From an uncultured Candidatus Bathyarchaeia archaeon (lineage in GTDB: Archaea; Thermoproteota; Bathyarchaeia; Bathyarchaeales; Bathycorpusculaceae), in the NCBI GenBank assembly GCA_964469615.1, contig CAYXZM010000031.1:20306-84305 (forward strand): DNA of 64,000 nt. The letters run 5' to 3'. Position 1 is the stretch's first letter. The number at the start of each line of letters is the position of its first letter. The notes beneath the pieces are model-generated. The model searched no databases. It was not told the DNA's origin and worked only from the letters and a program-made list of their open reading frames with translations. Made by a program: the position numbers and the translations under genes. Shown here one piece after another: positions 15,345 through 63,208 of the stretch.

Positions 15345-16466
15345 TTACGTAATGAAATTTGTTAACTTAGCCTCCCTAGCAAGTCTTGCAGCCTTCTCCA
15401 TTTCACCATTAGTAAGCCTTCGGCGTAATTCTGGAATCTCGTATGCCCGCCATTCTGGTCTATACTGAAACATCACATTAACCCTTGTTTCAGTCCCCAA
15501 ATTCTCAGCAATCCAATTTATGATAGGCTTTGTGCAGCATTCTAGATGATTTGGCAAGATTAATATGCGTATTATGAGCTCACCATGTTTTTTAGCGTCT
15601 AAATGATTACGTGTGCATACTTCCCAATATTCGGGTGCATCCGAAATTTTCTCAGAACATTCGCCTGGTCCATACTTAAAATCTAAAAGGTAAACGTCGG
15701 CAAATCCAGCTAAAAGTTGTGCTGTTTCTTGACTGTAATAGCTATTTGAATTCCAAACAACTGGAATGTTCACATTCACATGCTTGAAAATTTTAAGCCA
15801 TTGCTGAAGCCATGGAGTCGGTTCTCCACCAACGAGATTAGCATTTCTGCAACCATTTAAGCGTAAGTGCTCCACTTCTTTCGCTAGTTCTTCCGGTTTG
15901 TAAATTTCGCCATTTTCCGTCCATTGAGAAATTGTCCAATTTTGACAGTGCTTGCAGCGCATTGTACAGCCCATTGTGAATATAGTTCCAGATGGCACAA
16001 GTTCTGGTTCCTCGCCTACATGCTCAAAAATGCTTGAAACAGCTATCTTAGTGCCGCATCTGCAAAAACCTAATTCGCCCTTTAACCTATTAACAGCGCA
16101 TCGTCGAGTACAAAAATGACAGTTCGAAAGAATTCGATTTGCAATTTCTATTTTCAAATCAAGACAAGACTTCTCTGGAGCGGGCATTTCCTGCAATTTC
16201 TCATGTTCAACATCAATTTCTCTCTCAATGTTGTAAAATTCTTGCGTTAAGGCGGTATGCTTTTGCCAAAGTTCTTCTAAAGAATCGTGTTCACTGAAAT
16301 CTGCAGGAATTTTCTTGGCTATCATAAATTTTGCTAGCTTTTTATCTTTCATAACAGCAAAATATCTAGCTAAACTCTTCTGAACCCTCTTATCATTCAA
16401 CACAGCCAAAGCATCAGACCGCAAAAACTTCCACATGTCTACTCTAATAATAAATAGTGCAAACAC
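15345..16466 (-). CDS. radical SAM protein, PflX-like (pyruvate formate-lyase activase homologue, COG1313-type)
   Basis: Radical SAM motif CTMRCKHCQNW, preceded by CHFCTRRCAVNRLKGELGFC. The true start may be the internal MWKFL. Confidence 0.7.
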   Translation of the reverse strand: MFALFIIRVDMWKFLRSDALAVLNDKRVQKSLARYFAVMKDKKLAKFMIAKKIPADFSEHDSLEELWQKHTALTQEFYNIEREIDVEHEKLQEMPAPEKSCLDLKIEIANRILSNCHFCTRRCAVNRLKGELGFCRCGTKIAVSSIFEHVGEEPELVPSGTIFTMGCTMRCKHCQNWTISQWTENGEIYKPEELAKEVEHLRLNGCRNANLVGGEPTPWLQQWLKIFKHVNVNIPVVWNSNSYYSQETAQLLAGFADVYLLDFKYGPGECSEKISDAPEYWEVCTRNHLDAKKHGELIIRILILPNHLECCTKPIINWIAENLGTETRVNVMFQYRPEWRAYEIPELRRRLTNGEMEKAARLAREAKLTNFIT

Positions 16467-16580: not shown

Positions 16581-17642
16581 CTAAAACAGAGCATACGGAT
16601 AACTATACCCACTCGAATACAATTTACCTTTTATTGGTATTTCCCGCCCACACACTGGGCAACGCATGTCTTTAGCTAAATTCCACCTAGTAATCTCAAA
16701 GCTAAAACGTTTAATCAGCAACTCGTTGCAACTGGGACAGTAAGTATTTTCGGAAGGGTGTCCTGGCACGTTGCCTATGTAGACGTAGTTTAGTCCCTCA
16801 TTCTTTGCAACTGCATAAGCCTTCTCCAAAGTTTCAATTGGAGTGGAAGGAATTGTTGTCAATTGATAGTCGGGGTGAAAACGCAATAAATGAAAAGGCA
16901 CATCTTTGCCCAGATTATCTCTTATCCACGCAACAAGCTCTCTAATTTTATCAATCGAATCGCCTAATTTTGGTATAACCAAATTTGTAATTTCTATGTG
17001 GATGTCATTTCTTCTCATTTCCTTTAATGCCTCATAGATTGGTTCTACCGAAGGAACAGATGAAAAACTCTTATAGAAGCTTGGGTCTCCACCACTCTTA
17101 AAGTCCACAGTTGCAGCATCCAAATAAGGTGCTATAGTTTTCACTGCTTCTGGCGTCATATAACCATTTGTCACAAAAGTGTTAAAGAACCCAACTTGAC
17201 GAGCAAGCTCAGCAGTATCGTAGGCGTATTCAAAAAATATTGTCGGTTCTGTATACGTGTAACTTATACCTTGACAACCATTGTCTCTTGCAGCCTTAAC
17301 AACCTCTTCCGGAGGAAAATGCCTACCACCTATTTTCTTCTCTTGACTTATCATCCAGTTATCACAGAATTGACAGCGAAAATTGCAGCCAATCGTGGCA
17401 ATGGACATGACTAAGGCTCCTGGGTTGAAATGCGAAAGCGGTTTCTTTTCTATTGGGTCTACACATGCTGAAATTGCCTTAGCATAAACAAGCGAAAAAA
17501 GTGTTCCACCTTCATTTTTTCTAACTAAACAAAAGCCTGTTCCACTGTCATTTATAGTGCATCTTCTAGCGCATAGGTTGCACTTGACCTTTCCTTTCTC
17601 TAATTTTTCGTAGAGCATTGCTTCATGTAGTGAGGATGACAA
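16581..17642 (-). CDS. amrS: AmmeMemoRadiSam-system radical SAM enzyme
   Basis: CNLCARRCTINDSGTGFC, radical SAM motif CNFRCQFCDNW, and C-terminal zinc-ribbon Cys pairs (CPSC...CPVCG), as in the AmmeMemoRadiSam rSAM family. Confidence 0.75.
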   Translation of the reverse strand: MSSSLHEAMLYEKLEKGKVKCNLCARRCTINDSGTGFCLVRKNEGGTLFSLVYAKAISACVDPIEKKPLSHFNPGALVMSIATIGCNFRCQFCDNWMISQEKKIGGRHFPPEEVVKAARDNGCQGISYTYTEPTIFFEYAYDTAELARQVGFFNTFVTNGYMTPEAVKTIAPYLDAATVDFKSGGDPSFYKSFSSVPSVEPIYEALKEMRRNDIHIEITNLVIPKLGDSIDKIRELVAWIRDNLGKDVPFHLLRFHPDYQLTTIPSTPIETLEKAYAVAKNEGLNYVYIGNVPGHPSENTYCPSCNELLIKRFSFEITRWNLAKDMRCPVCGREIPIKGKLYSSGYSYPYALF

Positions 17643-20118: not shown

Positions 20119-21465
20119 ATGAAAAAAACAGCACTATTAGTGATTATGCTTCTTTCAATGCTCATATTTGCAGTACCCTCAAAGGTGAAAACTGAGACAA
20201 CTTCCATATCGTTGGCATATGATATAACACCTTTCAAAGAAGAATTCATAGATTCGGCGAACCTAGAAGCATTAGGTGAGTCTCTACCACCTGGTCAAAC
20301 ACCGTTCTGGGTCGACATAGTTGACGCAGAATACTATAATGGCGGCGATGGTGTTTATGTAGCAGTCTTAGACACAGGATTACTATCAGCTTGGACAACT
20401 TTCTTCACGGATCCAGTCACTGGCTACACGCCTATAAAATCAGAGTGGGGCAAAGGTTTCACGCATGACGTTTGGTGGAATGGTACTGATTTTGAGTGGG
20501 GTCCGCTTCGAGATGATAGAGGCTTCATTACGAAAGCTTTTGAAGGCTCAGGCCACGGCACACACGTAACAAGCACAATTGTTGGCTATCGCTTCCGTAC
20601 AGCCACAGCAGACTTCTTTGTACGAGGAGTTGCGCCAAAAGCAAAAATAATTCCAGTGCTTGTCTTAGATGCTTGGGAAGTCCCCTATCCAGGAGGAGCC
20701 GCCCGCTTTACCGGCGGCACATGGGAGATGGTCTCAGCAGGCATTCGTTATGTTGCTGATCTAGCCGAAAGCGAGGGCGTCAAAATAATAATCAACATGA
20801 GCCTCGGAGGCTCTAGCCCAAGTTCAATGATAGAAGAAGCCATAAACTATGCGATAAGCAAAGGCGTGATAGTAGTGGCATCCGCAGGTAACACGGGAGA
20901 AGCTGGCATGGGTTGGCCAGGCGCATATCCACAAGTCATATCTGCTGCTGCAGGCGGCTGGACAGAACAATGGATAACAAGGCCACCGCAAACAAGATGG
21001 TGGCTTAATGATGTTCCTGAAAGACTTAACACTAAAGACTATTGGGGAAACAACTGGCAAATGTACCTTGAAGAGTTTAGCTCCAGAGCAAATCCAGATT
21101 TAGGACAATCATGGAAAGACTTAGATGTCTGCACGCCAGGAGCATCAGTAGTCGGACCCTACAAGAGCTATTTCAGCACTACAGTTGGCTACTACTACTT
21201 ATGGGGTACAAGCATGGCGGCGCCACATGTGTCTGGGATTGCAGCGATAGTGGCTGAGCAATATCCAGAACTGAACCAAAATAGAATGGAATGGATTCTG
21301 AAAAAAGCATCTGTGCGACTTCCACTAGCATCAGATGGTGCTTACATACTTGATCCATGGGGCTTCTGGTACTATAAATGGAACGATCATGATTATGGTT
21401 CAGGCTGGTTGCAAGCAGACGAAGCAATCTTCGTTGCCAACGTCCATGCAAACAGATTGAAGTAA
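20119..21465 (+). CDS. secreted subtilisin-like serine protease (S8)
   Basis: Signal peptide, then the catalytic triad in context: VAVLDTGL (Asp), GHGTHVTSTI (His), GTSMAAPHVSG (Ser). Confidence 0.9.
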   Translation: MKKTALLVIMLLSMLIFAVPSKVKTETTSISLAYDITPFKEEFIDSANLEALGESLPPGQTPFWVDIVDAEYYNGGDGVYVAVLDTGLLSAWTTFFTDPVTGYTPIKSEWGKGFTHDVWWNGTDFEWGPLRDDRGFITKAFEGSGHGTHVTSTIVGYRFRTATADFFVRGVAPKAKIIPVLVLDAWEVPYPGGAARFTGGTWEMVSAGIRYVADLAESEGVKIIINMSLGGSSPSSMIEEAINYAISKGVIVVASAGNTGEAGMGWPGAYPQVISAAAGGWTEQWITRPPQTRWWLNDVPERLNTKDYWGNNWQMYLEEFSSRANPDLGQSWKDLDVCTPGASVVGPYKSYFSTTVGYYYLWGTSMAAPHVSGIAAIVAEQYPELNQNRMEWILKKASVRLPLASDGAYILDPWGFWYYKWNDHDYGSGWLQADEAIFVANVHANRLK

Positions 21466-21670: not shown

Positions 21671-23191
21671 ATGCATAAAGATGCTGTCGGAAGCACATTA
21701 TTTTCAGTCACCATCAATCCCATTCTCAAATCCTTAATAGGTCTCCTTGACAAAGAATGCCAAAAGGATGGAAACCTGCTTTTAAATTCTTTAAAAGATT
21801 TTTTAGATGAGCCAGTTGCTTTGTGCTCTGCATGCCAGCATATAAATCGCAATTTAGCTAGACCCTTGTATGAAATTGGAAGTCGTGTTCTGCGTGTAGA
21901 TAGAGAATTCATGCGCAGCCAATTTCTGAACAAACAATTTGGGGAGGCATGGCTAAGAGGATTCGGTTTAATGATGAAAGGCGTGGAAAAATATGGTGTG
22001 CGAGTGCCCTTTACTCCTGCAGGACCTTTTGAAATTGTTTGGAATTTTACTTATCAATGTAATTTAAGATGCAAACACTGCTATGAAAATGCCGGCCATA
22101 AGCGCCCAGAATTGTCAACAGATGAAGCCAAACAAGTTTTAGACAAACTTTCGAAAATAGCTGGCATAGGCTTACCTGCCCTATCCTTCAGTGGTGGCGA
22201 ACCGCTTTCAAGAAAAGATTTTTTTGAAATTGCATCTTACGCCAAGAAACGTGTAGGCTATGTAAGCATAGCATCAAACGGAACTCTCATTACCAAAGAT
22301 AATGCAAAGCGAATAAAAGATGCAAGAATAGATTATGTGGAAATAAGTATTGACGGGGCAACGCCACAAGTGCATGATGAGTTTAGGGGTATATCTGGAG
22401 CGTTTGAAAGAGCAATTGAAGGTGTCAGAAACAGTATTGATGAAGGAATAGACACTTGCATAGCAACTGTATTACATAGAGATAACTTGTCTGAACTGAA
22501 TAAGCTCATAGAACTTGCAAAACAATTGAACGTAAGATACATGCATTTCAACTACATTCCTACAGGAAGAGCGTTGGACCATGTTGAATTAGATTTAACT
22601 CCTGACGAGAGGTATCATGTACTTCAAACAATCGGAAAAGAGATAATTGGACTTTATTTACAAGCAAAAGAGGAAGAACTAAAATTTGGAAAGACAACCA
22701 TAAATGTTGACAGATTTTTCAGTACATGCCCTCAATACGCATCAGTGACGAAGGAGCTTTCGCATGCATATGGCGAGAGATTTTTGGTTGAAGCTCACTA
22801 TGCAGCGAAAAAAGGCGTAGAAAACGCTGCAAACTTTTTAGGAGGATGCGGGGCTGGTAGACTTTACTGCTGTCTTGAACCTAATGGAGACATTAAACCA
22901 TGTGTTTTCTTCCCAACAAACAAAGAAACGATTTTGGGTAACATATTGAGAGACAGTTTTGAAGATGTTTGGGACAACCATTTGCTCTTTTGGAAACTTC
23001 GGACAAGAGAAGACCTCGAAGTTTATACGGTGAATGGGAAACAAGTAGGTTGCGGAAACTGCCCAGAAAAGTACATTTGTGGAGGCTGCCGAGCAAGAGC
23101 ATACAGCTACTTTAATGGAAATGTTAATTCACCAGATATAGGATGCATTCACAATAAACCTCTTTGGGAAAAACTAATAAAGAGAAAATAG
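21671..23191 (+). CDS. radical SAM/SPASM-domain enzyme with an about 110-aa N-terminal extension
   Basis: Radical SAM motif CNLRCKHCYE. The C-terminal auxiliary-cluster Cys pattern (CGAGRLYCCLEPNGDIKPC ... CGNCPEKYICGGCRARAY) is typical of SPASM. The N-terminal extension has additional Cys (CQ..., CSACQH). Confidence 0.8.
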   Translation: MHKDAVGSTLFSVTINPILKSLIGLLDKECQKDGNLLLNSLKDFLDEPVALCSACQHINRNLARPLYEIGSRVLRVDREFMRSQFLNKQFGEAWLRGFGLMMKGVEKYGVRVPFTPAGPFEIVWNFTYQCNLRCKHCYENAGHKRPELSTDEAKQVLDKLSKIAGIGLPALSFSGGEPLSRKDFFEIASYAKKRVGYVSIASNGTLITKDNAKRIKDARIDYVEISIDGATPQVHDEFRGISGAFERAIEGVRNSIDEGIDTCIATVLHRDNLSELNKLIELAKQLNVRYMHFNYIPTGRALDHVELDLTPDERYHVLQTIGKEIIGLYLQAKEEELKFGKTTINVDRFFSTCPQYASVTKELSHAYGERFLVEAHYAAKKGVENAANFLGGCGAGRLYCCLEPNGDIKPCVFFPTNKETILGNILRDSFEDVWDNHLLFWKLRTREDLEVYTVNGKQVGCGNCPEKYICGGCRARAYSYFNGNVNSPDIGCIHNKPLWEKLIKRK

Positions 23192-53161: not shown

Positions 53162-53770
53162 GTGTCTTCAAAAACAAAGCGTGTAAGAGATAAGTGGAGA
53201 AGCAAATCATGGTACACAGTCGTAGCCCCATCCTATTTCGGGAATGTCGAGTTAGGAGCTGTGCCAGCCGATGAGCCAGAGAAAATTATTGGGAGAGTGG
53301 TTGATGCAACACTGTATGATGTTACAAATGATTTTGCGCATCAATACTTGAAAATGTATTTCCAAATAACAGAAATTGATGGCAAAACTGCTAAAACTAC
53401 TTTTAAGGGGCATGAATACTCCCGTGATTATCTGCGAAGTCTAGTTAGAAGACGAACAACAAAAGTTGATGGACTTTTTAATTTAACTACAAAAGACGGA
53501 TACAAACTGCGGGTTGCTATATCAGCTTTTTCGCTTTCTAGAATTAGAACATCACAAGAGAAAGAAATACGCGCTATTATGGAAAGAATTATTAAAGAAA
53601 AGGCTTCAGCTCTAACGCTGGATCAATTGGCACAAGAAATAGTTCTTGGAAAAATAGCGTCTGATATTTATAACGAAGCCAAAAAAATAGCTCCATTACG
53701 ACATGTCGGTATTAGAAAATCCAAGCTAGTAACGCAATTGGCACAACTCTCAGCGCAAAAGGCGGGATAA
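53162..53770 (+). CDS. rps3ae: 30S ribosomal protein S3Ae (eS1)
   Basis: DKWRSKSWYTVVAPSYFG and FKGHEYSRDYLRSLVRRRTTKVD. Confidence 0.95.
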   Translation: MSSKTKRVRDKWRSKSWYTVVAPSYFGNVELGAVPADEPEKIIGRVVDATLYDVTNDFAHQYLKMYFQITEIDGKTAKTTFKGHEYSRDYLRSLVRRRTTKVDGLFNLTTKDGYKLRVAISAFSLSRIRTSQEKEIRAIMERIIKEKASALTLDQLAQEIVLGKIASDIYNEAKKIAPLRHVGIRKSKLVTQLAQLSAQKAG

Positions 53771-54316
53771 ATTGCTTTTTAAAAGATTGTCAGCGTATTC
53801 ATAACCTTTTTCAAAAGCTATCAAATTCAATTCTTCTGTTCCTTTTGGTATATTCGCCTTAACTGATTCTTTGACAGCGTCTTTATCCAATATTTTTGTG
53901 ATGGCAACAAAGGCTCCCAACATCACTATGTTCGCAACAATTTTTCTCCCAAGCTCTTCTGCAATCTTTGTGGCAGGTATCCTAAAAACTCTAACGCTTG
54001 TTAAATCTTTTTCATTAGGAATCATGTCCGGGTCCATGATAATTATCCCATCCGCTTTAACATCTTCTGCATAGTCATTGTAGGCATGTTGAGACATCAC
54101 AATCAATATGTCTGGTTCAACCACTTTAGGAAAATCTATTTCCTCTTCGGATATTACAACTTCAGACTTACATGCCCCACCTCTTGACTCTGGACCGTAA
54201 GACTGTGTTTGAACAGCGCTTTTTCCACTGTAAATACAAGCAGCCGCAGCCGTTATTATTCCAGATCTAATTATTCCCTGCCCGCCGAAACCCGCAAATC
54301 TAATTTCAATCCGCAT
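53750..54316 (-). CDS. 2-oxoacid:ferredoxin oxidoreductase, gamma subunit
   Basis: MRIEIRFAGFGGQGII...SYGPESRGGA is the canonical gamma-subunit signature. ATG 54316 lies 7 nt after the beta stop. The 3' end overlaps rps3ae convergently by 21 nt. Confidence 0.85.
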   Translation of the reverse strand: MRIEIRFAGFGGQGIIRSGIITAAAACIYSGKSAVQTQSYGPESRGGACKSEVVISEEEIDFPKVVEPDILIVMSQHAYNDYAEDVKADGIIIMDPDMIPNEKDLTSVRVFRIPATKIAEELGRKIVANIVMLGAFVAITKILDKDAVKESVKANIPKGTEELNLIAFEKGYEYADNLLKSNLSRLLR

Positions 54317-54323
54317 GTCAGAC

Positions 54324-55163
54324 TCACCATTCCACTGTTTTCTCGTTAATCTGAGCCAATTTCTCATGGAAGAATTTTTCGTAGCTTACCCTTTTAATAT
54401 TCACAAATTCGCCCACAACAATTCTCTCTGAATTGATCTCTGCCTTTGACGGATCAGAAAAGTTCTCTATCACAGAAGCTCTTTTAAACCAGTCCATCAT
54501 TTCCAGTCCAGTTCGCATTTTGTTGTTCCTACCAAAAATTTCGGGGCAAGGTGAAACTACCTCGATGAAGCAAAAGCCTTCTTTTTCCAGCATCCTCTTA
54601 ATAGACTGTGTTAATCTTCGCACATGCAATGTTGTCCATCTGGCCACATAAGTTGCACCAGAAGCAGCTGCCAAATGAACGAGGTTAAACGGATGCTCAA
54701 TATTGCCATAGGGTGTGGTAGTTGTTAATGATTCAAGAGGTGTTGTAGGACCTTGCTGGCCGCCTGTCATTCCATAGTTGAAGTTGTTTGCGCATATTAC
54801 TTTGATTCCTATGTTTCTTCGGGCTGCATGTATGAAGTGATTGCCTCCTATTGCGAAAAGGTCGCCGTCTCCGCTTATGACGACTACTTCTAATTCTGGA
54901 TTTGCCAATTTCACTCCTGTGGCGAAGGGGATTGCTCTTCCATGTGTGGTGTGGAAGGAATCTGCGTTTGTGTATCCTGCTGTGCGCCCAATACAACCTA
55001 TACCTGAAACAACCACTAATTTATCTAAATCTTTTTGCAACTCATCTAGTGCGTGAACGAAGCAATTCAGCACAACGCCATTACCACAACCGGAACACCA
55101 AATATGAGGAATCATTGCGGAACGCAAATATTTCGAAAGAGGATGCACAATTTCCTGAACCAT
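54324..55163 (-). CDS. 2-oxoacid:ferredoxin oxidoreductase, beta (TPP-binding) subunit
   Basis: WCSGCGNG, VVSGIGC, GDGDLFAIGGNHFIHAARRN, NNFNYGMTGGQ. Confidence 0.9.
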   Translation of the reverse strand: MVQEIVHPLSKYLRSAMIPHIWCSGCGNGVVLNCFVHALDELQKDLDKLVVVSGIGCIGRTAGYTNADSFHTTHGRAIPFATGVKLANPELEVVVISGDGDLFAIGGNHFIHAARRNIGIKVICANNFNYGMTGGQQGPTTPLESLTTTTPYGNIEHPFNLVHLAAASGATYVARWTTLHVRRLTQSIKRMLEKEGFCFIEVVSPCPEIFGRNNKMRTGLEMMDWFKRASVIENFSDPSKAEINSERIVVGEFVNIKRVSYEKFFHEKLAQINEKTVEW

Positions 55164-56314
55164 TACACGTTCCTCCTGATCAACTCAAAAATCTCCTTCG
55201 GAGTATGCGGATCTTCACCCAACTTCGAAAGAAAAGCCACAGGAGTTGTTTTGGCGGCTCTTTCAACTTCGCGAACCATCTGTCCACAATTCATTTCTGG
55301 AACAACTATTGCCTTCGCTTCCTTCGCCACTTTCGCGACAATTCTTTCTGGGAAAGGCCAAAGCGTGATTAAGCGCAACAGTCCTGCTTTTATTCCAGTT
55401 TCTCTTGCTTTCTTTACTGCGCTTAAAGCAGCTCTTGCAACTATTCCATAGGCAACAACTGCAACATCTGCGTCTTCAAGCATCACTCCTTCAACCTTTA
55501 TAATTTTATCCTCATTTGTGCTTATTTTTTCACAAAGTCTTCTGACAAGTCTAGACTGAACCTCTGAACTTTGTGTTCTTGGATAACCATGCTCGTCATG
55601 AGTTAAGCCTGTGGCATGAAAACGATATCCCTCGCCAAAACAAGCCATCGAAGGAACTAAATCATCATCTGGCATGAAAGGACTATATCTACTAGGTGAA
55701 ACCTTTGGTTTTTTGCGATTTACTATTCTTATTTCTGATGCAGGAGGTATTACAACTTTTTCCCACATGTGCGCTACGATTTCATCTCCCATAAGCAGCG
55801 TTGGGACCCTGTAAGTTTCAGACAAATTGAACGCTTCAATTGTTAAGCTGAACATTTCTTGCACTGAGGAAGGTGACAATGCGATAATGGCATAATCTCC
55901 ATGAGAACCCCATTTCGCCTGCATTACATCTTGTTGCCCTGGCAATGTAGGCTGTCCAGTGCTAGGTCCTCCACGCATAATATCAACTATGACGCATGGA
56001 GTTTCTGTCATTGCAGCCAATCCTATGTTCTCTTGCATGAGACTAAAACCAGGTCCAGAAGTTGCTGTCATAGCTTTCAAGCCAGCATATGAAGCACCGA
56101 TTACTGCAGCCATAGATGCGATTTCGTCTTCCATTTGAATGTAGATTCCGCCAAATTCTGGCATTCTTTGGGATAGATGTTCAGCGATTTCTGTTGCAGG
56201 TGTTATTGGATACCCTGCGAAAAATCTGCAGCCACCAGCTATTGCTCCTTCTGCACATGCAATATCTCCACTCAAAAAGTGTGCACCAGCAGGAAGTGTT
56301 CCTTTTTTAATCAA
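55163..56314 (-). CDS. 2-oxoacid:ferredoxin oxidoreductase, alpha subunit
   Basis: GDIACAEGAIAGGCRFFAGYPITPATEI, ATSGPGFSLMQE, MRGGPSTGQPT. The TTG start overlaps the delta stop. Confidence 0.9.
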   Translation of the reverse strand: MIKKGTLPAGAHFLSGDIACAEGAIAGGCRFFAGYPITPATEIAEHLSQRMPEFGGIYIQMEDEIASMAAVIGASYAGLKAMTATSGPGFSLMQENIGLAAMTETPCVIVDIMRGGPSTGQPTLPGQQDVMQAKWGSHGDYAIIALSPSSVQEMFSLTIEAFNLSETYRVPTLLMGDEIVAHMWEKVVIPPASEIRIVNRKKPKVSPSRYSPFMPDDDLVPSMACFGEGYRFHATGLTHDEHGYPRTQSSEVQSRLVRRLCEKISTNEDKIIKVEGVMLEDADVAVVAYGIVARAALSAVKKARETGIKAGLLRLITLWPFPERIVAKVAKEAKAIVVPEMNCGQMVREVERAAKTTPVAFLSKLGEDPHTPKEIFELIRRNV

Positions 56315-56594
56315 GCTTCACATTCCTCCTTACATGGCTTTTCAAAGACAAAAATTGCGAAGTCCGGACAGACTGCAGTACAAAAACCGCATATAATACA
56401 TTTGCTTTCATCCACAATTTTTGGAGGATGAACTCCTCTTGCATTTATTTCCTGTGATTCTTCAAGAACCTTTTTTGGGCAGTATCGAATGCAGAAACCG
56501 CACCTTTACACTGGTCCTTAATTATGTGAATTTCAGCCTTAGGTTGTTTTATCTTTTTGCTTTCAAGTGGGGGATGCATGATTCTTTCAGGCAT
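56311..56594 (-). pseudogene. 2-oxoacid:ferredoxin oxidoreductase delta (2x[4Fe-4S] ferredoxin) subunit, interrupted by a 1-nt frameshift
   Basis: My translation is MPERIMHPPLESKKIKQPKAEIHIIKDQCKG, then a shift, then CGFCIRYCPKKVLEESQEINARGVHPPKIVDESKCIICGFCTAVCPDFAIFVFEKPCKEECEA. The sequence reads AAAGGTGCGGTTTCTGC where AAAGGTTGCGGTTTCTGC is expected, so one T is missing at about 56501/56502. The span is 284 nt, not a multiple of 3. Confidence 0.75.
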
Positions 56595-56595
56595 A

Positions 56596-59028
56596 TTAAC
56601 TTCCCTCTAACGCTTTCTCAAAAGATTCTTTAGCCTTACCTATTTCTTCTGGCTTAACTTTGTCCACTATTGCCTGCATTTCCAGAATTTTTGAAGCAAA
56701 CCTTTCACCTTCTGCCGCCGAAGCCCACAACAACTGTAGCCTATTCTTGTCTAATCCGCTTTGCTCCATCTTCTTCCATAAACGTTCCACACGCTTCTGT
56801 GTATGATAATTAGCATTTATGTAATGACAATCTCCTGGGTGACAACCAGCCACCAAAACTGCTGCTGCACCTCTTGCAAAGGCTCTTTCAACGAATTTTG
56901 TGGCCACACGTCCAGAACACATGGTTCTAATTATGCGCACGTTTGGCGGATACTGCATTCTACTGACTCCTGCAAAATCCGCGCCAGCGTAAGCGCACCA
57001 ATTACAGCAGAAAGCGACAATCTTCTTATCTGCGTCATGTTCTGTAACAGCATCTATCTGCGCAATAATTTGTTCATCAGTGAAGTGATTCTGCGTTAAA
57101 GCGCCGAAAGAACATTCCGCTGCACACGTTCCACATCCACCGCATGCAGCCTCTATTATCTCAACCCGCTTCAATTCCTTATTCAATGTTATGGCATTAT
57201 AAGGACAGACCTTCGTACAAAGCCCACATAATTTGCACTTTTCAATATAAGAAATCGGTGTGATGGCTTCAACAGTTACCTTTCCTTTAGCCATCAAAAT
57301 CCCAGCTCGAGCTGCAGCTGCGCTTGCCTGTGTTACGCTGTCTTTTATATCTTTAGGCGCCTCAGCGCAGCCAGCAAAGAATATTCCGCCTGTAGCAGCG
57401 TCAACTGGTCTCAGTTTTGGATGTGCCTCCATAAAGAACCCGTCTTGTGTCCTAGAAAGCGTTAACAAGCGCTGTATTATCTCGCTATCTTTTCGCGGCT
57501 CCAGACCTATGGAGAGAATTGCCATATCTGTGTTTATTTTGTACATTTCCTTTAGCAAAGTGTTCTCTCCAACAAGCCATAGGTTATGAGTTTTCCTATC
57601 CTCAATTATTTCTGCTGGAAGCCCTCGAATGAATATGACACCTTCTTTTCTCGCTCTTTTGTAAAGGTCTTCAAAACCCTTCCCATAAGCTCGTATATCC
57701 ACATAAAAAACGTAAATTTCAGTTTCGGGCCAATGTTCTTTAATTAGCAAGCTATCTTTTATCGTATTCATACAGCAGACATTGCTACAGTATAGTCTTC
57801 CATTTCTATCTGAGCGTGAACCAACACATTGGATAAAGGCTACACGCTTCGGGATTTGCATGTCGCTAGGTCTTATGAGATGTCCACCTGAAGGGCCGCC
57901 TGCATTGATTAGTCTTTCGAATTCAAGTGAAGTTATTACGTTTGGATATTTGCCATAGCCATATTGTGGCAGTGTTGAGGGGTCGAATACATCTGCGCCT
58001 GTTGCTACAATTATTGTGCCTACTTCAAGCTCGACAGTTTCGGTTTTCATTTCGAAATTTATGGCTTGTCGCTCACAAGCTTTAATACATTTGTCGCAGA
58101 CTATTATGCCTTCCTTGTTGAGACATAAGTTCATGTCTATTGTATATGTTGATGGAACTGCTTGCGCAAATGGTGTGTAAATTGCATGTCTTATGGCCAA
58201 TCCTACATCAAATTCGTTTGGAGCAATAATTGGACAAACCTTTGTGCATTCGCCACAAGCAGAACAGTCTTTTGTAACATATCTTGGCTTTTTCAATATT
58301 TTGACATGAAAATTGCCTATATATCCCTTAACTTCTGTAACTTCACTTTGAGTTAGCAACTCAATATTTGGATGATGCCCAACGTCAGACATTTTAGGTG
58401 CAAGAATGCAGATTGAACAGTCCATTGTTGGAAAAGTTTTGTCTATTCGCGCCATCATTCCCCCGATGCTCGGTTCTTTCTCAACCAAATACACTTTATA
58501 GCCAGTATCAGCCAAATCCAAGGCTGCTTGAATACCAGCCACGCCGCCACCTATAATCAAGGCTTTTCGAATTATCGGTACTTCAATTTCTTCTGCAGGC
58601 TGAAGCAATGCTGCCTTCGCAACAGCCATTTTCACAAGGTTTTTAGCCTTTTCTGTTGCCGCCTTTCGGTCATGTAAATGAACCCAACTACACTGTTCAC
58701 GTATGTTAGCCATTTCGAAAAGGTACTTGTTTACTCCAGCTTCTTCGCATGCTTTTCTGAAAGTGGGTTCATGAAGACGCGGTGAGCACGATGCAACGAC
58801 TATACGGTTGAGCTTTTGTTCTTTTATGTCATTTTTTATCTGTTCTTGCCCTTGGTCTGAACACGTGTATCGGTTGTCTCTGGCTAAAACCACATGGGGA
58901 AGAGTTGCGGCGAATTTTGCAGTTTCTTCACAATCTACAGAACCAGCAATATTTAGACCACAATGGCAAACGTAAACTCCGATGCGGATTTCTTCGCATT
59001 TAGGTTCTAGCTCTTTCTTCTTCGCCAT
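56596..59028 (-). CDS. hdrA: heterodisulfide reductase subunit A-like flavoprotein fused to an MvhD-like C-terminal domain
   Basis: HdrA N-domain IGVYVCHCGLNI, FAD motif IIGGGVAGIQAALDLA, and several ferredoxin motifs (CSACGECTKVCP, CDKCIKACE, CKLCGLCTKVCP, CGGCGTCAAEC). The MvhD signature follows: VAFCCNWCAYAGADFAGVSRMQYPPNVRIIRTMCSGRV...VAGCHPGDCHY. Confidence 0.85.
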   Translation of the reverse strand: MAKKKELEPKCEEIRIGVYVCHCGLNIAGSVDCEETAKFAATLPHVVLARDNRYTCSDQGQEQIKNDIKEQKLNRIVVASCSPRLHEPTFRKACEEAGVNKYLFEMANIREQCSWVHLHDRKAATEKAKNLVKMAVAKAALLQPAEEIEVPIIRKALIIGGGVAGIQAALDLADTGYKVYLVEKEPSIGGMMARIDKTFPTMDCSICILAPKMSDVGHHPNIELLTQSEVTEVKGYIGNFHVKILKKPRYVTKDCSACGECTKVCPIIAPNEFDVGLAIRHAIYTPFAQAVPSTYTIDMNLCLNKEGIIVCDKCIKACERQAINFEMKTETVELEVGTIIVATGADVFDPSTLPQYGYGKYPNVITSLEFERLINAGGPSGGHLIRPSDMQIPKRVAFIQCVGSRSDRNGRLYCSNVCCMNTIKDSLLIKEHWPETEIYVFYVDIRAYGKGFEDLYKRARKEGVIFIRGLPAEIIEDRKTHNLWLVGENTLLKEMYKINTDMAILSIGLEPRKDSEIIQRLLTLSRTQDGFFMEAHPKLRPVDAATGGIFFAGCAEAPKDIKDSVTQASAAAARAGILMAKGKVTVEAITPISYIEKCKLCGLCTKVCPYNAITLNKELKRVEIIEAACGGCGTCAAECSFGALTQNHFTDEQIIAQIDAVTEHDADKKIVAFCCNWCAYAGADFAGVSRMQYPPNVRIIRTMCSGRVATKFVERAFARGAAAVLVAGCHPGDCHYINANYHTQKRVERLWKKMEQSGLDKNRLQLLWASAAEGERFASKILEMQAIVDKVKPEEIGKAKESFEKALEGS

Positions 59029-59032
59029 CGCC

Positions 59033-60502
59033 TTATCCTCCTAGATGCTCTAAATAACTTTCAATAGATGCAGCAGCTCGCTTTCCAGCTAGAATCGCTT
59101 CAATAACTGTTGCTGGTCCTGTTGCCACGTCACCGCCTGCAAAAACACCCTGCAGACTTGTTTCCATGGTTATTGGGTTAACCCAGACTGTGCCATCATC
59201 ATTCAATTCAATTTCCTTCGGCAAAAATTCTAGGTCTGGGACTTCGCCTATTGCGAGAATAACCATATCCGCCTTTCGCGTGAACTCTGATCCTTCAATT
59301 GGCATCGGTTTTCTTCTTCCAGTTTCGTCTGGCTCGCCTAATTGCATTTGAATACATTCGATGTCAGTTACCCTTCCTTTTTCTCCAAGAATCGTTTTAG
59401 GTGCGACTAATAATTCGATTTTCACGCCTTCGTTTTCAGCTTCCTTAATGTCCCATGGATTTGCAGGCATTTCCTCTTTTGATCTGCGATATAATATGGT
59501 AACTTCTTTTGCTCCAAGTGCCAAAGCAGTTTTTGCAGAGTCAATGGCTACGTTTCCACCGCCAATTACAATAACATTTTTTCCAACTTCCATTTTTTCT
59601 CCGCAATTTGTGCTCCATAAAAAGTTGAGAGCGTGAATAACGCCCTCCAGATCTCCGCCTTCAATTTTCAACTTTTGGCTTTTATGAGCACCAACACCAA
59701 TAAAAATCGCTCTATAGCCTTCTTTCCATAAATCTCCAAAATTTAGGTCATTGCCAACTGTTACGCTGGTTTTTACTTCAACACCCAAATCTTTAATGAA
59801 CTGAATCTGCTTAGTTAAAACCCGTTTCGGTAAGCGATATTCAGGTATACATTTCCTTAGCATTCCACCAAGTTCATGAAGGGCTTCAAAAATTGTGACA
59901 TTGTGCCCCTTCCTGGCTAGTTCATATGCAACTGTAAGCCCAGCCGGTCCAGAGCCTATTACAGCAATTTTTTCACCAGAAAACTTTGCTGCTTTTTTTC
60001 TCTTTTTTGTTTTCATTTGGTCTTTCAGCATTTTTTCAGTTTCCGCTAATATCTTACCAATATTCAATGTGGCACGTTCTGGATGAAAACAAACTAACAT
60101 TGTTACAAGAGGTAGAGGAATGTTTTCTACAATCTTAGAGAGAGCTTTTTTAAAAGGCTCTGTATATCCGTATATCGCTGCTTTTTTTCGCATAAAAAGG
60201 AAAATTTCAGGCAGTCTTAAAGCTTGTGGGCAACGTTTGTAGCAGCGATAACACCAAGCGCAAAGCCAAAGCTCTTCTGAAGTTAAAGCTTCTTTTGGAT
60301 TTAAAAAGATTTTTTCCAGAAAACTCCTTGGATTGTAATCTTTTCCAAGTAACTCTGCTACCGAACAACTGGCTGTGCAGATGCCACATTCATAGCAGTA
60401 TTTGAGTTTTTCAACGTCAAGAAGTCTCTTAATGTCTTCCTTGGAAATTATGGGCTTTGCAGTTTCCAAGTGGTGAGCCCTCTGTAGTTTTGGGGTTCTC
60501 AC
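59033..60502 (-). CDS. HdrC-like 2x[4Fe-4S] domain fused to a GltD/NfnB/SudA-like NAD(P)H-dependent FAD oxidoreductase
   Basis: The N-terminus CYECGICTASC...YNPR...LWLCAWCYRCYKRCP is HdrC-like. Then IAVIGSGPAGLTVAYELARKG, GGMLRKCIPEYRLPK, VIVIGGGNVAIDSAKTA and VFAGGDVATG (GltD-type). GGAGGA lies 8 nt before the hdrA ATG, inside this gene's end. Confidence 0.8.
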   Translation of the reverse strand: MRTPKLQRAHHLETAKPIISKEDIKRLLDVEKLKYCYECGICTASCSVAELLGKDYNPRSFLEKIFLNPKEALTSEELWLCAWCYRCYKRCPQALRLPEIFLFMRKKAAIYGYTEPFKKALSKIVENIPLPLVTMLVCFHPERATLNIGKILAETEKMLKDQMKTKKRKKAAKFSGEKIAVIGSGPAGLTVAYELARKGHNVTIFEALHELGGMLRKCIPEYRLPKRVLTKQIQFIKDLGVEVKTSVTVGNDLNFGDLWKEGYRAIFIGVGAHKSQKLKIEGGDLEGVIHALNFLWSTNCGEKMEVGKNVIVIGGGNVAIDSAKTALALGAKEVTILYRRSKEEMPANPWDIKEAENEGVKIELLVAPKTILGEKGRVTDIECIQMQLGEPDETGRRKPMPIEGSEFTRKADMVILAIGEVPDLEFLPKEIELNDDGTVWVNPITMETSLQGVFAGGDVATGPATVIEAILAGKRAAASIESYLEHLGG

Positions 60503-60544
60503 AAATATAAAGGTTTACAAACGTAAAGGTTTTGACCACTCATA

Positions 60545-60574
60545 AAAAATGTGTGAAGGCTCAAACACATTTTT
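60545..60574. promoter_or_regulatory. perfect 10-bp inverted repeat in the divergent promoter region upstream of the hdr/oxidoreductase operon
   Basis: AAAAATGTGT-N10-ACACATTTTT. It sits in the 105-117 nt spacer between the minus-strand gene starting at 60502 and the plus-strand gene starting at 60608/60620. Confidence 0.3.
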
Positions 60575-60619
60575 ATTAATCTAGAAACAATAAAAGAAAA
60601 TCAAAAGGTGAAGAATAAA

Positions 60620-61651
60620 ATGCGGAAAGTGAAGATTATTTTATACGGAGTTGGCGCCGTTGGCAACCTAATTGCAAAGTTTTTGCTAAAAAAAGAAGGA
60701 ATAGAAATCGTTGGAGCAATCGACATAGCTAAGGACAAGGTTGGTAAAGATTTAGGTGAAGTTTTAGGCATAAACAAAAAGCTCGGAATAAAAGTCACTG
60801 CAAACGCTACAGCTTTGCTTTCAAAAGTGAAGGCAGACATCGCTATCCATGCAACCTCTTCTTTCCTTAAAGATACATTTCCGCAAATAACCACAATCAT
60901 AAAGCACGGCATAAAAGTGATATCTACATGTGAGGAACTGACGTATCCATACTATACTGCACCTAAACTTGCAAAAGAACTTGACATTCGAGCCAAAAAA
61001 TATAAGACATCAGTTTTGGGCACAGGCATAAACCCTGGTTTTCTAATGGATACGCTTGTCATAACGCTTACTACGGTTTGCCAAAAAATAGAAAAAATCC
61101 ATGCGATTAGAGTGATGGATGCTGCTACAAGGCGGGTGCCTTTTCAGAAGAAGATAGGCGCTGGATTAACAGTTGAAGAATTCAAGCAAAAAATCAGAAG
61201 GAAAGAGATTACAGGGCATGTTGGGCTTGAGCAATCCGTCGCAATGATTGCTGATGCTTTAGCATGGAAACTTGACAAGATAATAGCTGAATCTGTTGAG
61301 CCAGTGATTGCCAGCAAAACTGTTAGAAGCAGAGACATAAAGGTGGAAACTGGAAAAGTAGCAGGTTTGAGGCAAGAGGCAAAAGGTATTATGAAGAATA
61401 AAGAGGTTATAGTTCTTGATTTTCAAGCATACATTGGTGCTGAAGAAGAATCTGATGCCATAACAATTGAGGGCGTTCCAAGCATCAGGCAAAAGATTCA
61501 GCCATGTGTTCACGGCGACATAGGCACAGTAGCGATGGTTGTTAACTCGATACCTAAAGTGATTAAGGCGCCACATGGCTTGTTAACAATGAAGGATTTG
61601 CCAATTCCATCAGCAGCAATAGAAGATATGAGTAAATATATTTCTTCTTAG
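60620..61651 (+). CDS. NAD(P)-binding DapB-like dehydrogenase (2,4-diaminopentanoate dehydrogenase / amine dehydrogenase-like)
   Basis: Rossmann N-terminus KVKIILYGVGAVGNLIAKFLL, DapB-like GTGINPGF, and an about 345-aa length. Confidence 0.55.
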   Translation: MRKVKIILYGVGAVGNLIAKFLLKKEGIEIVGAIDIAKDKVGKDLGEVLGINKKLGIKVTANATALLSKVKADIAIHATSSFLKDTFPQITTIIKHGIKVISTCEELTYPYYTAPKLAKELDIRAKKYKTSVLGTGINPGFLMDTLVITLTTVCQKIEKIHAIRVMDAATRRVPFQKKIGAGLTVEEFKQKIRRKEITGHVGLEQSVAMIADALAWKLDKIIAESVEPVIASKTVRSRDIKVETGKVAGLRQEAKGIMKNKEVIVLDFQAYIGAEEESDAITIEGVPSIRQKIQPCVHGDIGTVAMVVNSIPKVIKAPHGLLTMKDLPIPSAAIEDMSKYISS

Positions 61652-61673
61652 TCTGTTTTTACTATTGTATGGG

Positions 61674-62453
61674 ATGGATTTGAAGATCCGAATCGACGTA
61701 AACTGCGATTTAGGCGAAAGCTATGGAGAATTTAAAGTTGGAAACGACGAGAAAATAATGCCTCACATAACCTCAGCAAATATTGCTTGTGGTTTCCATG
61801 CTGGAGACCCTATGACAATAGCACAGACAATAAGCCTTGCTAAAAAGCATCATGTTGCAGTTGGAGCGCATCCAAGTTATCCAGACCTTATAGGTTTTGG
61901 AAGAAGAGAGATGCAACTAACAGATGTTGAAGTCAAGAACTACATAATTTATCAAGTAAGCGCCGTTCAAGGATTCGCGAAAGCAGCCAATCTTGTCCTT
62001 CAGCATGTAAAACCCCACGGTGCACTATATAACATGGCCGTGAAGGATGAAAAACTTTCCAACGCTATCGTTGGAGCGATAAAAACAATAGACAGTGGCC
62101 TAATAGTTTTTGCACCCCCGAACTCGGCTTTAGCAAAAGTCGCCGCTAAGAATGGTTTACGTGTGGCATACGAATTCTTTGCTGACAGAGCCTACAATCC
62201 AGATGGAAGTCTAGTATCGAGAAACGAAAAAAATGCCGTAATTCAAGAAACGAAGAAAGTTATTGAAAGAACAATCAATGTGGTTCAAGATGGAACAGTT
62301 TTAGCCGCTAATAGAGAAACAGTAAAGCTTGGCAAAGTGCACACCCTCTGTGTGCACGGTGACACACCAAACGCTGTAGAACTGGCAAAAAATTTGAAGA
62401 AGAAATTAATTGAGAACGGCTTTGATGTTAAATCTGTAGGCGACTTTATCTAG
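61674..62453 (+). CDS. pxpA: 5-oxoprolinase subunit A (LamB/YcsF family)
   Basis: IDVNCDLGESYG, ANIACGFHAGDP, GAHPSYPD and VKPHGALYN. Confidence 0.85.
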   Translation: MDLKIRIDVNCDLGESYGEFKVGNDEKIMPHITSANIACGFHAGDPMTIAQTISLAKKHHVAVGAHPSYPDLIGFGRREMQLTDVEVKNYIIYQVSAVQGFAKAANLVLQHVKPHGALYNMAVKDEKLSNAIVGAIKTIDSGLIVFAPPNSALAKVAAKNGLRVAYEFFADRAYNPDGSLVSRNEKNAVIQETKKVIERTINVVQDGTVLAANRETVKLGKVHTLCVHGDTPNAVELAKNLKKKLIENGFDVKSVGDFI

Positions 62454-62470
62454 CAATTTTGGGCTTTAAT

Positions 62471-63208
62471 ATGAAAATCAGACCCTATGCGTCAGCCAGA
62501 TACTTGCCTTTCGGCGATAGTGCACTGCTTGTAGAATTTGGTGATACAATAAGTTTAGAGGTAAATAGCAAGGTTATCGCTCTAAATGAAGCAATCCAAA
62601 AGACTGAAATTCTGGGAATTGAAGAACTAGTTCCAACTTATCGTTCATTACTTATTCGTTATAACGCATTGAAAACTACATATGAGCAGCTATTGTTTCA
62701 CATAAAAAACCTTGAGAGAACTTTAAGCAAGATAAGTATAGAGAAAGTGGGCAAGAAAATCACTATTCCCGTAGCTTACGGAGGCGAGTATGGACCAGAT
62801 CTAAGCTACGTGGCGGAATTTCATAGACTATCAGAAAAGCAAGTTATCAAACTACATTCTGAAAGAGAATATAGGGTTTACATGATCGGTTTTGTCGCTG
62901 GCTTTCCCTATTTAGGAGAGGTCCCAAAAGAAATTGCAACACCACGGCTTGAAACACCACGACTTAAAGTGCCGGCAGGTTCGGTTGGAATAGCCGAAAA
63001 TCAGACAGGCATATACCCATGTGAGGCACCTGGTGGATGGAGAATAATAGGTAGAACACCCTTTAAACTGTTTAACCCACTACAACAACCGCCTGCACTA
63101 CTGAAACCAGGAGACAGAATTAAGTTTAAGCCAATCTCAAAAAGTGAATTTGAAACAATCAAAGAAACTGTGTCGAAGAACGTTTATTCGCATTTTTCTG
63201 AGGAATAG
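62471..63208 (+). CDS. pxpB: 5-oxoprolinase subunit B (KipI / allophanate hydrolase subunit 1-like)
   Basis: GDSALLVEFGD, VPTYRSLLIRY, GFVAGFPYLG and GIAENQTGIYP. Confidence 0.85.
   Translation: MKIRPYASARYLPFGDSALLVEFGDTISLEVNSKVIALNEAIQKTEILGIEELVPTYRSLLIRYNALKTTYEQLLFHIKNLERTLSKISIEKVGKKITIPVAYGGEYGPDLSYVAEFHRLSEKQVIKLHSEREYRVYMIGFVAGFPYLGEVPKEIATPRLETPRLKVPAGSVGIAENQTGIYPCEAPGGWRIIGRTPFKLFNPLQQPPALLKPGDRIKFKPISKSEFETIKETVSKNVYSHFSEE

Follow-up and report, generated by a model that had tools for sequence, protein, structure and literature searches.

Does an operon that places a 2-oxoacid:ferredoxin oxidoreductase (OFOR) directly behind genes for an HdrA-type and an NfnB-type flavoprotein encode one redox system, or enzymes that work apart? 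The question is raised by a locus in a 64,000-nucleotide stretch of DNA, here called the window, from an uncultured Candidatus Bathyarchaeia archaeon (contig CAYXZM010000031.1, positions 20,306 to 84,305, assembly GCA_964469615.1). Six consecutive co-directional open reading frames (ORFs) occupy its minus strand at 53750-60502. Our reading, a tentative one to which we give somewhat less than an even chance, is that this operon couples an OFOR of the KGOR/Oor type to a redox module formed by an HdrA-MvhD fusion and an NfnB-like subunit. The six genes and the region upstream of them are as follows.

59033-60502, minus strand: gene 1 (g1) ORF, an NfnB/NfnL/GltD-type FAD and NADP(H) subunit with HdrC-type N-terminal motifs
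56596-59028, minus strand: gene 2 (g2), an HdrA-MvhD fusion of the HdrA2 type
56311-56594, minus strand: gene 3 (delta), OFOR delta subunit with 2x[4Fe-4S], frameshifted in the window
55163-56314, minus strand: gene 4 (alpha), OFOR alpha subunit of the KGOR/Oor type, with a TTG start that overlaps the delta stop
54324-55163, minus strand: gene 5 (beta), OFOR beta subunit with thiamine pyrophosphate (TPP) and one [4Fe-4S] cluster, GDGD...NN motif present
53750-54316 (ORF 53750-54367), minus strand: gene 6 (gamma), OFOR gamma subunit, real start ATG 54316
60470-60607, strand not applicable: divergent intergenic region between g1 and an amine-dehydrogenase-like gene, sequence read, putative operon promoter

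An earlier note made from the sequence, below called the original prediction, had described six minus-strand genes in a tight array, and its ORF coordinates and all its junctions were confirmed. The g1 stop and the g2 ATG are 4 nt apart, with GGAGGA lying within the end of g1, and 1 nt separates the g2 TAA from the delta ATG. The delta and alpha genes overlap at TTGA, alpha and beta overlap by 1 nt, and the beta stop lies 7 nt from gamma if gamma begins at ATG 54316, the gamma protein being 181 amino acids (aa) long in relatives. Shine-Dalgarno-like sequences (GGAGG/GAGGG) stand ahead of the internal genes of the operon, and the 3' end of gamma overlaps a convergent S3Ae gene by 21 nt.

The start of g1 had been placed at GTG 60502, and this assignment is revised. 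Homologues of g1 are mostly 478 aa long and start at the position of TTG 60469. A TATA-like box, TTTATATT, spotted by eye in the sequence upstream of g1, occupies 60504-60511; TTG 60469 follows about 38 nt further downstream, and GTG 60502 stands directly behind the box. Because the homologues begin at the TTG and the GTG abuts the box, the true start is most likely TTG 60469, which gives a protein of 478 aa; the region of the box would be the putative promoter of the operon. The DNA round the box is conserved, and several database entries, P0003 and P0058 among them, translate it as an N-terminal extension ('NLYVCKPLYLW'). Gene models that give g1 489-516 aa probably start too early, and the correct length is likely 478 aa.

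Gene 2 matches HdrA over its full length. It aligns with chain A of PDB entry 5ODC (5odc_A) at an E-value of 1e-252, residues 12-661 on 2-649, with the cluster Cys motifs conserved, and it carries a thioredoxin-reductase-like FAD domain together with three ferredoxin domains (N-terminal, inserted and C-terminal) that keep their Cys ligands. Its C-terminus is an MvhD [2Fe-2S] domain, found both by Pfam (FlpD, 1e-48 at residues 670-790) and by alignment to 5odc_D (E 5e-42 over 667-793). The NCBIfam model NF040770 for HdrA2 scores 1267 bits, above its cutoff of 1100. With a full-length HdrA match and a C-terminal MvhD, the predicted protein belongs to the HdrA family and to its HdrA2 subclass. 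The original call of an HdrA fused to MvhD is thus borne out by Pfam, NCBIfam and 5ODC matches that agree with one another; such fusions are already known as the HdrA2 class (PMC5296606). Gene 2 encodes the best-conserved protein of the operon, with 84-93% identity in relatives versus 63-82% for g1.

Gene 1 had been described as an HdrC-like domain fused to a GltD/NfnB module. The domain content is as described: Pfam finds Pyr_redox_2 and Fer4_8/9/17, NCBIfam finds PRK12771, gltA and HdrC, and PDB matches include NfnL (5jca_L, E 4e-76). The N-terminal region has the motifs C36xxC39xxC42xxxC46 and C81xxC84xxC87xxxC91P, and residues 30-114 align to residues 28-110 of HdrC (5odc_C, E 5e-16). The novelty that had been attached to the fusion does not stand. 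An AlphaFold model of g1 (mean pLDDT 83) superposes on 5jca_L over 429 columns with TM 0.69/0.71 and 39% identity, which is nearly the full length, and we have downgraded the idea of an unprecedented HdrC-GltD fusion on this account. Since all NfnB/GltD proteins have an N-terminal helical domain with two [4Fe-4S] clusters, 'HdrC fused to GltD' overstates what is new. As modelled, g1 has the NfnB/NfnL architecture, and its N-terminal two-cluster helical domain bears HdrC-type motifs.

The likeness of g1 to the large subunit of NfnSL/NfnAB (NfnL 5JCA; NfnB 4YLF) extends over a fold of about 430 residues, the FAD and NADPH motifs and the N-terminal two-cluster domain, so that all parts by which an NfnB/NfnL subunit is recognised (N-terminal 2x[4Fe-4S], FAD domain, NADPH domain) are present. 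The two differ in that both CxxCxxCxxxC(P) sets are complete in g1, in the manner of HdrC, and that the stretch which reads 'CPx5Cx2C' in NfnL has shrunk in g1 to a single Cys (VCFHPER). They differ also in the partner, which in this operon is HdrA: Pfam found no PyrK-like FAD plus [2Fe-2S] domains, as in NfnA/NfnS, in the six operon genes or the neighbouring ORFs scanned. The nucleotide site, GGGNVA...YRRS..EMPA, and the FAD motif GSGPAG are invariant across 23 g1 homologues. In GltD/NfnB proteins the arginine pair of the YRR motif indicates NADP(H). The motif GxGxxA counts as an NADP signature (PMC12054007). Together these motifs point to a site that prefers NADP(H), and NADP rather than NAD would be the partner of g1. 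The proposal of an NAD(P)H-linked module is reasonable in the light of the invariant site and the superposition on NfnL.

Genes 3-6 had been read as an OFOR with delta, alpha, beta and gamma subunits, and the families agree. Alpha matches Pfam POR_N and PFOR_II and NCBIfam PRK08659 (583 bits, cutoff 411); its PDB matches are 1yd7_A, labelled 2-keto acid:ferredoxin oxidoreductase subunit alpha (E 5e-135), and 8ys5_A, labelled 2-oxoglutarate synthase subunit alpha (E 2e-81). Beta matches Pfam TPP_enzyme_C, NCBIfam PRK09628 and 8ys5_C (2-oxoglutarate ferredoxin oxidoreductase subunit beta, E 8e-66). Gamma matches Pfam POR and NCBIfam PRK08537 (253 bits, cutoff 235, aligned from residue 18), and delta, once repaired as described below, matches the NCBIfam models OGOR_delta and OorD. 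The NCBIfam scores of alpha and gamma lie above the curated cutoffs and those of beta and delta below. 8YS5 is probably the Helicobacter OorDABC enzyme; four-subunit KGOR are known also from Thermococcales. By these families, genes 3-6 have the subunit set of a four-subunit OFOR of the KGOR/Oor lineage. The best matches are of the 2-oxoglutarate type (8ys5, OGOR_delta and PRK09628, with the beta and delta scores under the curated cutoffs), and 2-oxoglutarate is the likely substrate. The four-subunit KGOR/Oor enzymes share the delta-alpha-beta-gamma set and a gene order like that found here; they are stand-alone enzymes that use free ferredoxin, whereas the OFOR of this operon follows HdrA/NfnB-type genes. 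We know of no stand-alone KGOR/Oor enzyme that is encoded behind such genes.

What did not hold for genes 3-6 is an intact delta gene in the window. From ATG 56594 to TGA 56311 there are 284 nt with no open frame; the first 31 codons are in one frame and the remainder in another, and the break falls inside the first CxxCxxCxxxCP motif. One C is missing between 56503 and 56502 on the minus strand (GGC TGC -> GG-TGC). Two contigs that are 99.93% identical to the window, L166 (ENA ERZ27245602 k141_73299) and L165 (JGI Ga0129301_1000847), have the base and an intact delta of 94 aa; over 12,968 nt the window differs from L166 by 8 substitutions and the delta gap, and by nothing more. The gene is also intact in 46 of 46 more distant relatives (91-97 aa, motif DQCKGCG[FY]C). 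These intact copies rule out a programmed frameshift or a pseudogene as features of the lineage. The deletion appears confined to the window sequence, as either an assembly error or a rare variant.

The original prediction held further that neither HdrB nor a hydrogenase or formate dehydrogenase is encoded in the operon or the window, and both searches bear this out. A regular expression for the CCG and [NiFe] large-subunit motifs, applied in six frames, matched no window ORF of at least 60 aa, and among 46 window ORFs scanned with Pfam none matched a CCG, hydrogenase or formate dehydrogenase family. As a positive control, the CCG expression does pick out HdrB-like ORFs beside HdrA in loci from deltaproteobacteria. 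In 86 related loci (1.0 Mb) it gave four scattered matches, none consistently near the operon, and relatives show no hydrogenase or formate dehydrogenase as a regular neighbour of the operon. An HdrB gene that regularly accompanies these fusions, which would have spoken against the original view, was therefore not seen near the operon in relatives. An HdrABC complex is recognised by an HdrB with two CCG domains encoded together with HdrA and HdrC, and no such set is found in the operon, the window or the conserved neighbourhood. In a complete Bathy-6 genome, HdrB (2745) and HdrC (2744) are listed far from a fused HdrA+MvhD (2887) (PMC11697101 supplement), and for this reason the absence of HdrB is stated here for the operon, the window and the neighbourhood in relatives. 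Because the fused HdrA+MvhD of Bathy-6 adjoins a polyferredoxin (MvhB) (PMC11697101), it probably represents a paralogous polyferredoxin cluster, described below, and not this operon.

The strength of the linkage was assessed in relatives. A scan of metagenome contigs with a g1 alignment gave 80 loci with 63-82% g1 identity, 41 of which have room for the whole operon (at least 6.4 kb downstream). In all 41, g1, g2, delta, alpha, beta and gamma follow one another in unchanged order on one strand, and the spacing is conserved as well.

g1-g2 junction: median 4 nt (71 loci)
g2-delta junction: median 2 nt (50 loci), 1-3 nt in 48 of 50
delta-alpha junction: median 2 nt (49 loci), -4 in 13 loci
alpha-beta junction: median -1 nt (46 loci)

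The six-gene arrangement is found also in four Pfam-annotated NCBI assemblies of Bathyarchaeia, three reached via g1 homologues and one via a g2 homologue. In three loci (L109, L119, L132) the OFOR subunits are more divergent, with alpha at 69-71% and gamma at 53-59%, and the linkage is kept; in L132 and L157 the upstream neighbour is absent and the operon is kept. Seen from the OFOR side, the 120 closest alpha homologues (at least 83% identity) are all from Bathyarchaeia, and g1 and g2 lie upstream at every such locus that was read. The closest homologues of the operon proteins carry the names Bathyarchaeia, Bathyarchaeota or Bathycorpusculaceae. One 92%-identical HdrA-MvhD homologue (P0244, on a 4.3-kb contig) is labelled 'Acidobacteriota bacterium' by NCBI, the other close ones being Bathyarchaeia; its contig is probably mis-binned.

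The synteny check proposed with the original prediction therefore came out in favour of a conserved arrangement. The fusion proteins recur in well over 100 independent contigs, by which the suspicion that they are misassemblies is ruled out. The observation is real and strongly conserved, save for the delta frameshift specific to the window and a g1 start that was probably over-long; the interpretation that came with it is plausible and is borne out in part.

Is the OFOR partner general among proteins of this kind? We examined the genes within 6 kb of 80 g1-like loci among the matches listed, with 36-57% identity and drawn from Desulfobacterota, Chloroflexota, Bathyarchaeia and others. The counts were as follows.

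HdrA-like gene within 6 kb: 40 of 80 loci
MvhD-like sequence within 6 kb: 31 of 80 loci
CCG motif within 6 kb: 10 of 80 loci
OFOR within 6 kb: 1 of 80 loci (L046)

The single OFOR case, L046 7226-12301, lies on a deltaproteobacterial contig (RBG_16_49_23): genes for OFOR alpha, beta and gamma come first, and immediately after them a 460-aa NfnB/GltD-like gene. The locus showed no HdrA-like sequence and may represent an NADP(H) subunit tied to an OFOR independently and in a simpler way. Bathyarchaeia themselves have a paralogous cluster (L003 1123-6038, also L001 and L002) in which g1' and g2' are accompanied by a 322-aa polyferredoxin instead of an OFOR; g1' is 56% identical to g1, and g2' is 71-81% identical to g2. 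This cluster resembles the hdrA2-polyferredoxin pair of Methanosarcina. Judged by gene content among the matches listed, an NfnB-like protein with HdrA(+MvhD) and without HdrB is widespread in bacteria and other phyla, and the OFOR partner is peculiar to Bathyarchaeia.

Several known systems resemble parts of the operon. Fusions of HdrA with GltD/NfnB are known as HdrL of Desulfobacterium autotrophicum (PMC2702500), as the HdrA-NfnB proteins HdrA9-11 of ANME-1 (PMC9012536) and as 'type III HdrA' with a GltD/NfnB part (PMC12054007). They have the same wiring of an NAD(P)H-reactive GltD/NfnB flavin to HdrA, and are likewise biochemically uncharacterised. In these proteins the GltD/NfnB part lies inside HdrA or is fused to it (for the archaeal cases, the inserted ferredoxin domain), and they occur with HdrBC, MvhADG or other HdrA copies, whereas in this operon the NfnB-like part is a separate protein with an HdrC-type domain, and an OFOR is in the cluster.

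The MvhAGD-HdrABC complex (Methanothermococcus/Methanothermobacter wolfeii, PDB 5ODC) shares with the operon an HdrA with FAD and three ferredoxin-type domains, an MvhD and an HdrC-type module. The operon differs from it in being without HdrB (CCG, non-cubane clusters), the MvhAG hydrogenase and the heterodisulfide site; its MvhD is fused to HdrA, its HdrC-type domain forms one chain with an NADP(H) flavoprotein, and the OFOR stands at the place of the hydrogenase genes. HdrA2B2C2 of Methanosarcina acetivorans (PMC5296606) has the same class of HdrA-MvhD fusion; the cluster here lacks HdrB2C2, gives no indication of F420H2 or CoM-S-S-CoB, and encodes an NfnB-like subunit and an OFOR instead.

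From the OFOR side, the phenylglyoxylate:NAD+ oxidoreductase PadEFGHI and the 2-oxoglutarate:NADP+ oxidoreductase of Azoarcus evansii have an OFOR core with an extra flavoprotein that passes electrons to NAD(P)+, and NCBIfam Pad models are among the matches of the window OFOR proteins. In those enzymes the extra subunit is a simple FAD/NAD module; they are not known to have parts of the HdrA, MvhD or HdrC type, and no proposal of bifurcation is known for them. The full-text literature searched, which left one specialist review of HdrA modules outside its coverage, nowhere describes an operon that unites OFOR, HdrA and NfnB. That an OFOR is so strictly kept with such a module, with NADP(H) in the place of HdrB, appears to be undescribed. 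The original remark that no characterised complex of this composition is known stands as far as the OFOR partner is concerned; the HdrA-MvhD and HdrA-NfnB associations were already known. By their homologies all parts of the operon come from known families, and the pairing of HdrA with NfnB is a known idea, so that only the OFOR partner is new.

How might the parts work together? By analogy, a physical complex with a docking order, an electron direction and bifurcation can be proposed. In MvhAGD-HdrABC, electrons come in via MvhD and go out via HdrC and the inserted ferredoxin domain (Wagner et al. 2017, summarised in PMC5861303). In the operon, TPP-dependent oxidation of a 2-oxoacid, most likely 2-oxoglutarate, would release electrons through the two [4Fe-4S] clusters of delta, from which they would pass to the MvhD [2Fe-2S] cluster of g2 and on to the HdrA FAD. 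One arm would lead from the HdrA FAD through the N-terminal HdrC-type clusters of g1 to the g1 FAD and NADP+. NADP+ would thereby replace the HdrB/heterodisulfide of methanogens as the acceptor on the HdrC arm, a place suggested for it because the HdrC-type clusters are covalently joined to the NADP(H) flavin in g1. The other arm, if HdrA still bifurcates, would run through the inserted ferredoxin domain to ferredoxin (Fd). The net reaction would be

2 2-oxoacid + 2 CoA + NADP+ + 2 Fd(ox) -> 2 acyl-CoA + 2 CO2 + NADPH + 2 Fd(red)

and it would fix the split between NADPH and ferredoxin and permit ferredoxin reduction at very low potential. NAD(P)+, at about -320 mV, can act as the high-potential partner only if the donor lies well under about -410 mV; a 2-oxoacid/acyl-CoA couple near -500 mV qualifies as such a donor, and H2, F420H2 and formate hardly do. 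The route from OFOR to MvhD/HdrA to NADP+, with or without ferredoxin, is proposed because of the 5ODC wiring, these potentials and the position of the delta gene, which directly follows the MvhD-encoding end of g2. In its most specific form, an HdrA-based bifurcating complex in which electrons of a 2-oxoacid donor, at about -500 mV, are split at the HdrA flavin between NADP+ and a ferredoxin that is driven far below its usual potential, the proposal is in our estimate rather unlikely.

A number of points weigh against coupling of the OFOR to the g1-g2 module. The operon's transcript, complex and activity are predicted from the genes alone. The gene order, of the korDABG type, is that of an ordinary stand-alone OFOR. 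Nor is it plain that coupling is needed, for NADP+ and ferredoxin can both be reduced by 2-oxoacid oxidation with no bifurcation at all. The relatives come without exception from a single archaeal class, and in them the flanking genes are syntenic too (38 of 39 loci have S3Ae downstream); shared ancestry, rather than selection, may thus account for part of the conservation. The g1-g2 type of pair can function without an OFOR, because pairs that lack one occur in many bacteria and in the paralogous cluster of Bathyarchaeia. HdrB and HdrC are encoded elsewhere in the complete Bathy-6 genome, and the window's own copy of delta carries a frameshift. The main rival explanation supposes separate, co-expressed enzymes: an ordinary KGOR would reduce free ferredoxin, g1 and g2 would form an Nfn-like ferredoxin:NADP+ oxidoreductase that recycles it, and the operon would balance their expression. 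A g1-like protein with HdrA(-MvhD) and without OFOR in 40 of the 80 distant loci among the matches listed, and again in the g1'-g2'-polyferredoxin cluster, is what this explanation would lead one to expect, as are the standard delta-alpha-beta-gamma order, the high similarity of the OFOR to PDB entries labelled as stand-alone enzymes, and the retention of delta, the usual ferredoxin-docking subunit. It accounts less well for an operon that contains no ferredoxin gene, for a g2-delta spacing held to 1-3 nt at 48 of 50 loci, as is usual where subunits are produced in a fixed ratio, and for the presence of g1 and g2 upstream of the closest alpha homologues wherever the locus was read; nor would a simple ferredoxin:NADP+ reductase need a complete six-cluster HdrA plus MvhD. 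We regard separate enzymes as a serious possibility, if one still well short of probable.

Two further explanations are less likely than separate enzymes. In one, g2 would be completed in trans to a disulfide reductase by recruiting unlinked HdrBC, with a heterodisulfide-like acceptor and the OFOR or NADPH as donor. The hdrA2 and hdrB2C2 genes are unlinked in Methanosarcina acetivorans. HdrA2 of this species works with HdrB2C2, the subunits having been produced individually (PMC5296606), g2 passes the NCBIfam HdrA2 model, and Bathy-6 offers an example of HdrB and HdrC encoded at a distance from HdrA+MvhD. The HdrC site, though, would be filled by the HdrC-type domain of g1, which is encoded immediately upstream and translationally coupled; CCG proteins are not consistently near the operon in the 86 loci; and the Bathy-6 example probably concerns the cluster with the adjoining polyferredoxin. 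We consider completion in trans improbable. The other explanation reverses the reaction, such that NADPH (via g1) and reduced ferredoxin (via HdrA) would be confurcated to turn succinyl-CoA, by reductive carboxylation, into 2-oxoglutarate for glutamate synthesis. Enzymes of the KGOR type are 2-oxoglutarate synthases in methanogens with incomplete reductive tricarboxylic acid branches, HdrA complexes are reversible in principle, and the operon has glutamate-related 5-oxoprolinase genes as neighbours. Energetically, NADPH at -320 to -380 mV would need ferredoxin far below -600 mV to drive a couple at about -500 mV, which is unfavourable except where CO2 is plentiful and the product is drawn off. 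The 5-oxoprolinase makes glutamate, moreover, and catabolism of glutamate to 2-oxoglutarate fits at least equally well. An anabolic direction, too, has in our view little chance of being correct.

The neighbouring genes on the upstream side are these.

60608-61651, plus strand: 2,4-diaminopentanoate-dehydrogenase-like NAD(P) amine dehydrogenase (Pfam DAP_DH_C/DapB_N)
61665-62453, plus strand: 5-oxoprolinase subunit PxpA (Pfam LamB_YcsF)
62459-63208, plus strand: 5-oxoprolinase subunit PxpB (Pfam CT_C_D)

The amine-dehydrogenase-like gene is divergent from the operon and adjacent to it in 50 of the 69 relatives with room, and PxpA is present in 41 of the 69. L166 and L167 have the same amine-dehydrogenase/5-oxoprolinase layout; L166 3024-6577 extends this flank with pxpC, followed by MoaE, PhoU-like and metallophosphoesterase genes. 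The flank hints at a tie between glutamate or pyroglutamate and 2-oxoglutarate, but may be plain synteny. Elsewhere in the window, four radical-SAM proteins are encoded (1499-2356, 15345-16466, 16581-17642 and 21671-23191), one of which has a SPASM domain and adjoins a subtilase-like peptidase (20119-21465). This set, unrelated to the operon, may be a peptide-maturation locus.

Bathyarchaeia, a globally abundant class of which little has been cultivated, rank with the commonest archaea of anoxic sediments, and the operon offers a testable hypothesis for their balance between ferredoxin and NAD(P)H. They are mostly without Rnf and without classical bifurcating hydrogenases (PMC7886697, PMC11697101). 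Public annotation names g2 'CoB-CoM heterodisulfide reductase HdrA2' and g1 'FAD-dependent oxidoreductase' or 'glutamate synthase beta subunit-like'. In metabolic reconstructions the OFOR and Hdr parts figure apart, and that one operon, strictly conserved, unites them seems not to have been noted. If cooperation of the parts is real, a 2-oxoacid oxidoreductase would join H2, formate, F420H2 and NADH/methylene-tetrahydrofolate among the partners of HdrA, and NADP+ would be shown to substitute for the heterodisulfide; by either finding redox models of Bathyarchaeia would change, and the known range of flavin-based bifurcation would widen. Should the bifurcating reading be true, Bathyarchaeia would conserve energy that is normally lost when NADPH is made from 2-oxoacids. 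Even on a plainer view, in which the operon encodes no more than a path from 2-oxoacid to NADPH, it would fill a gap in the metabolic map.

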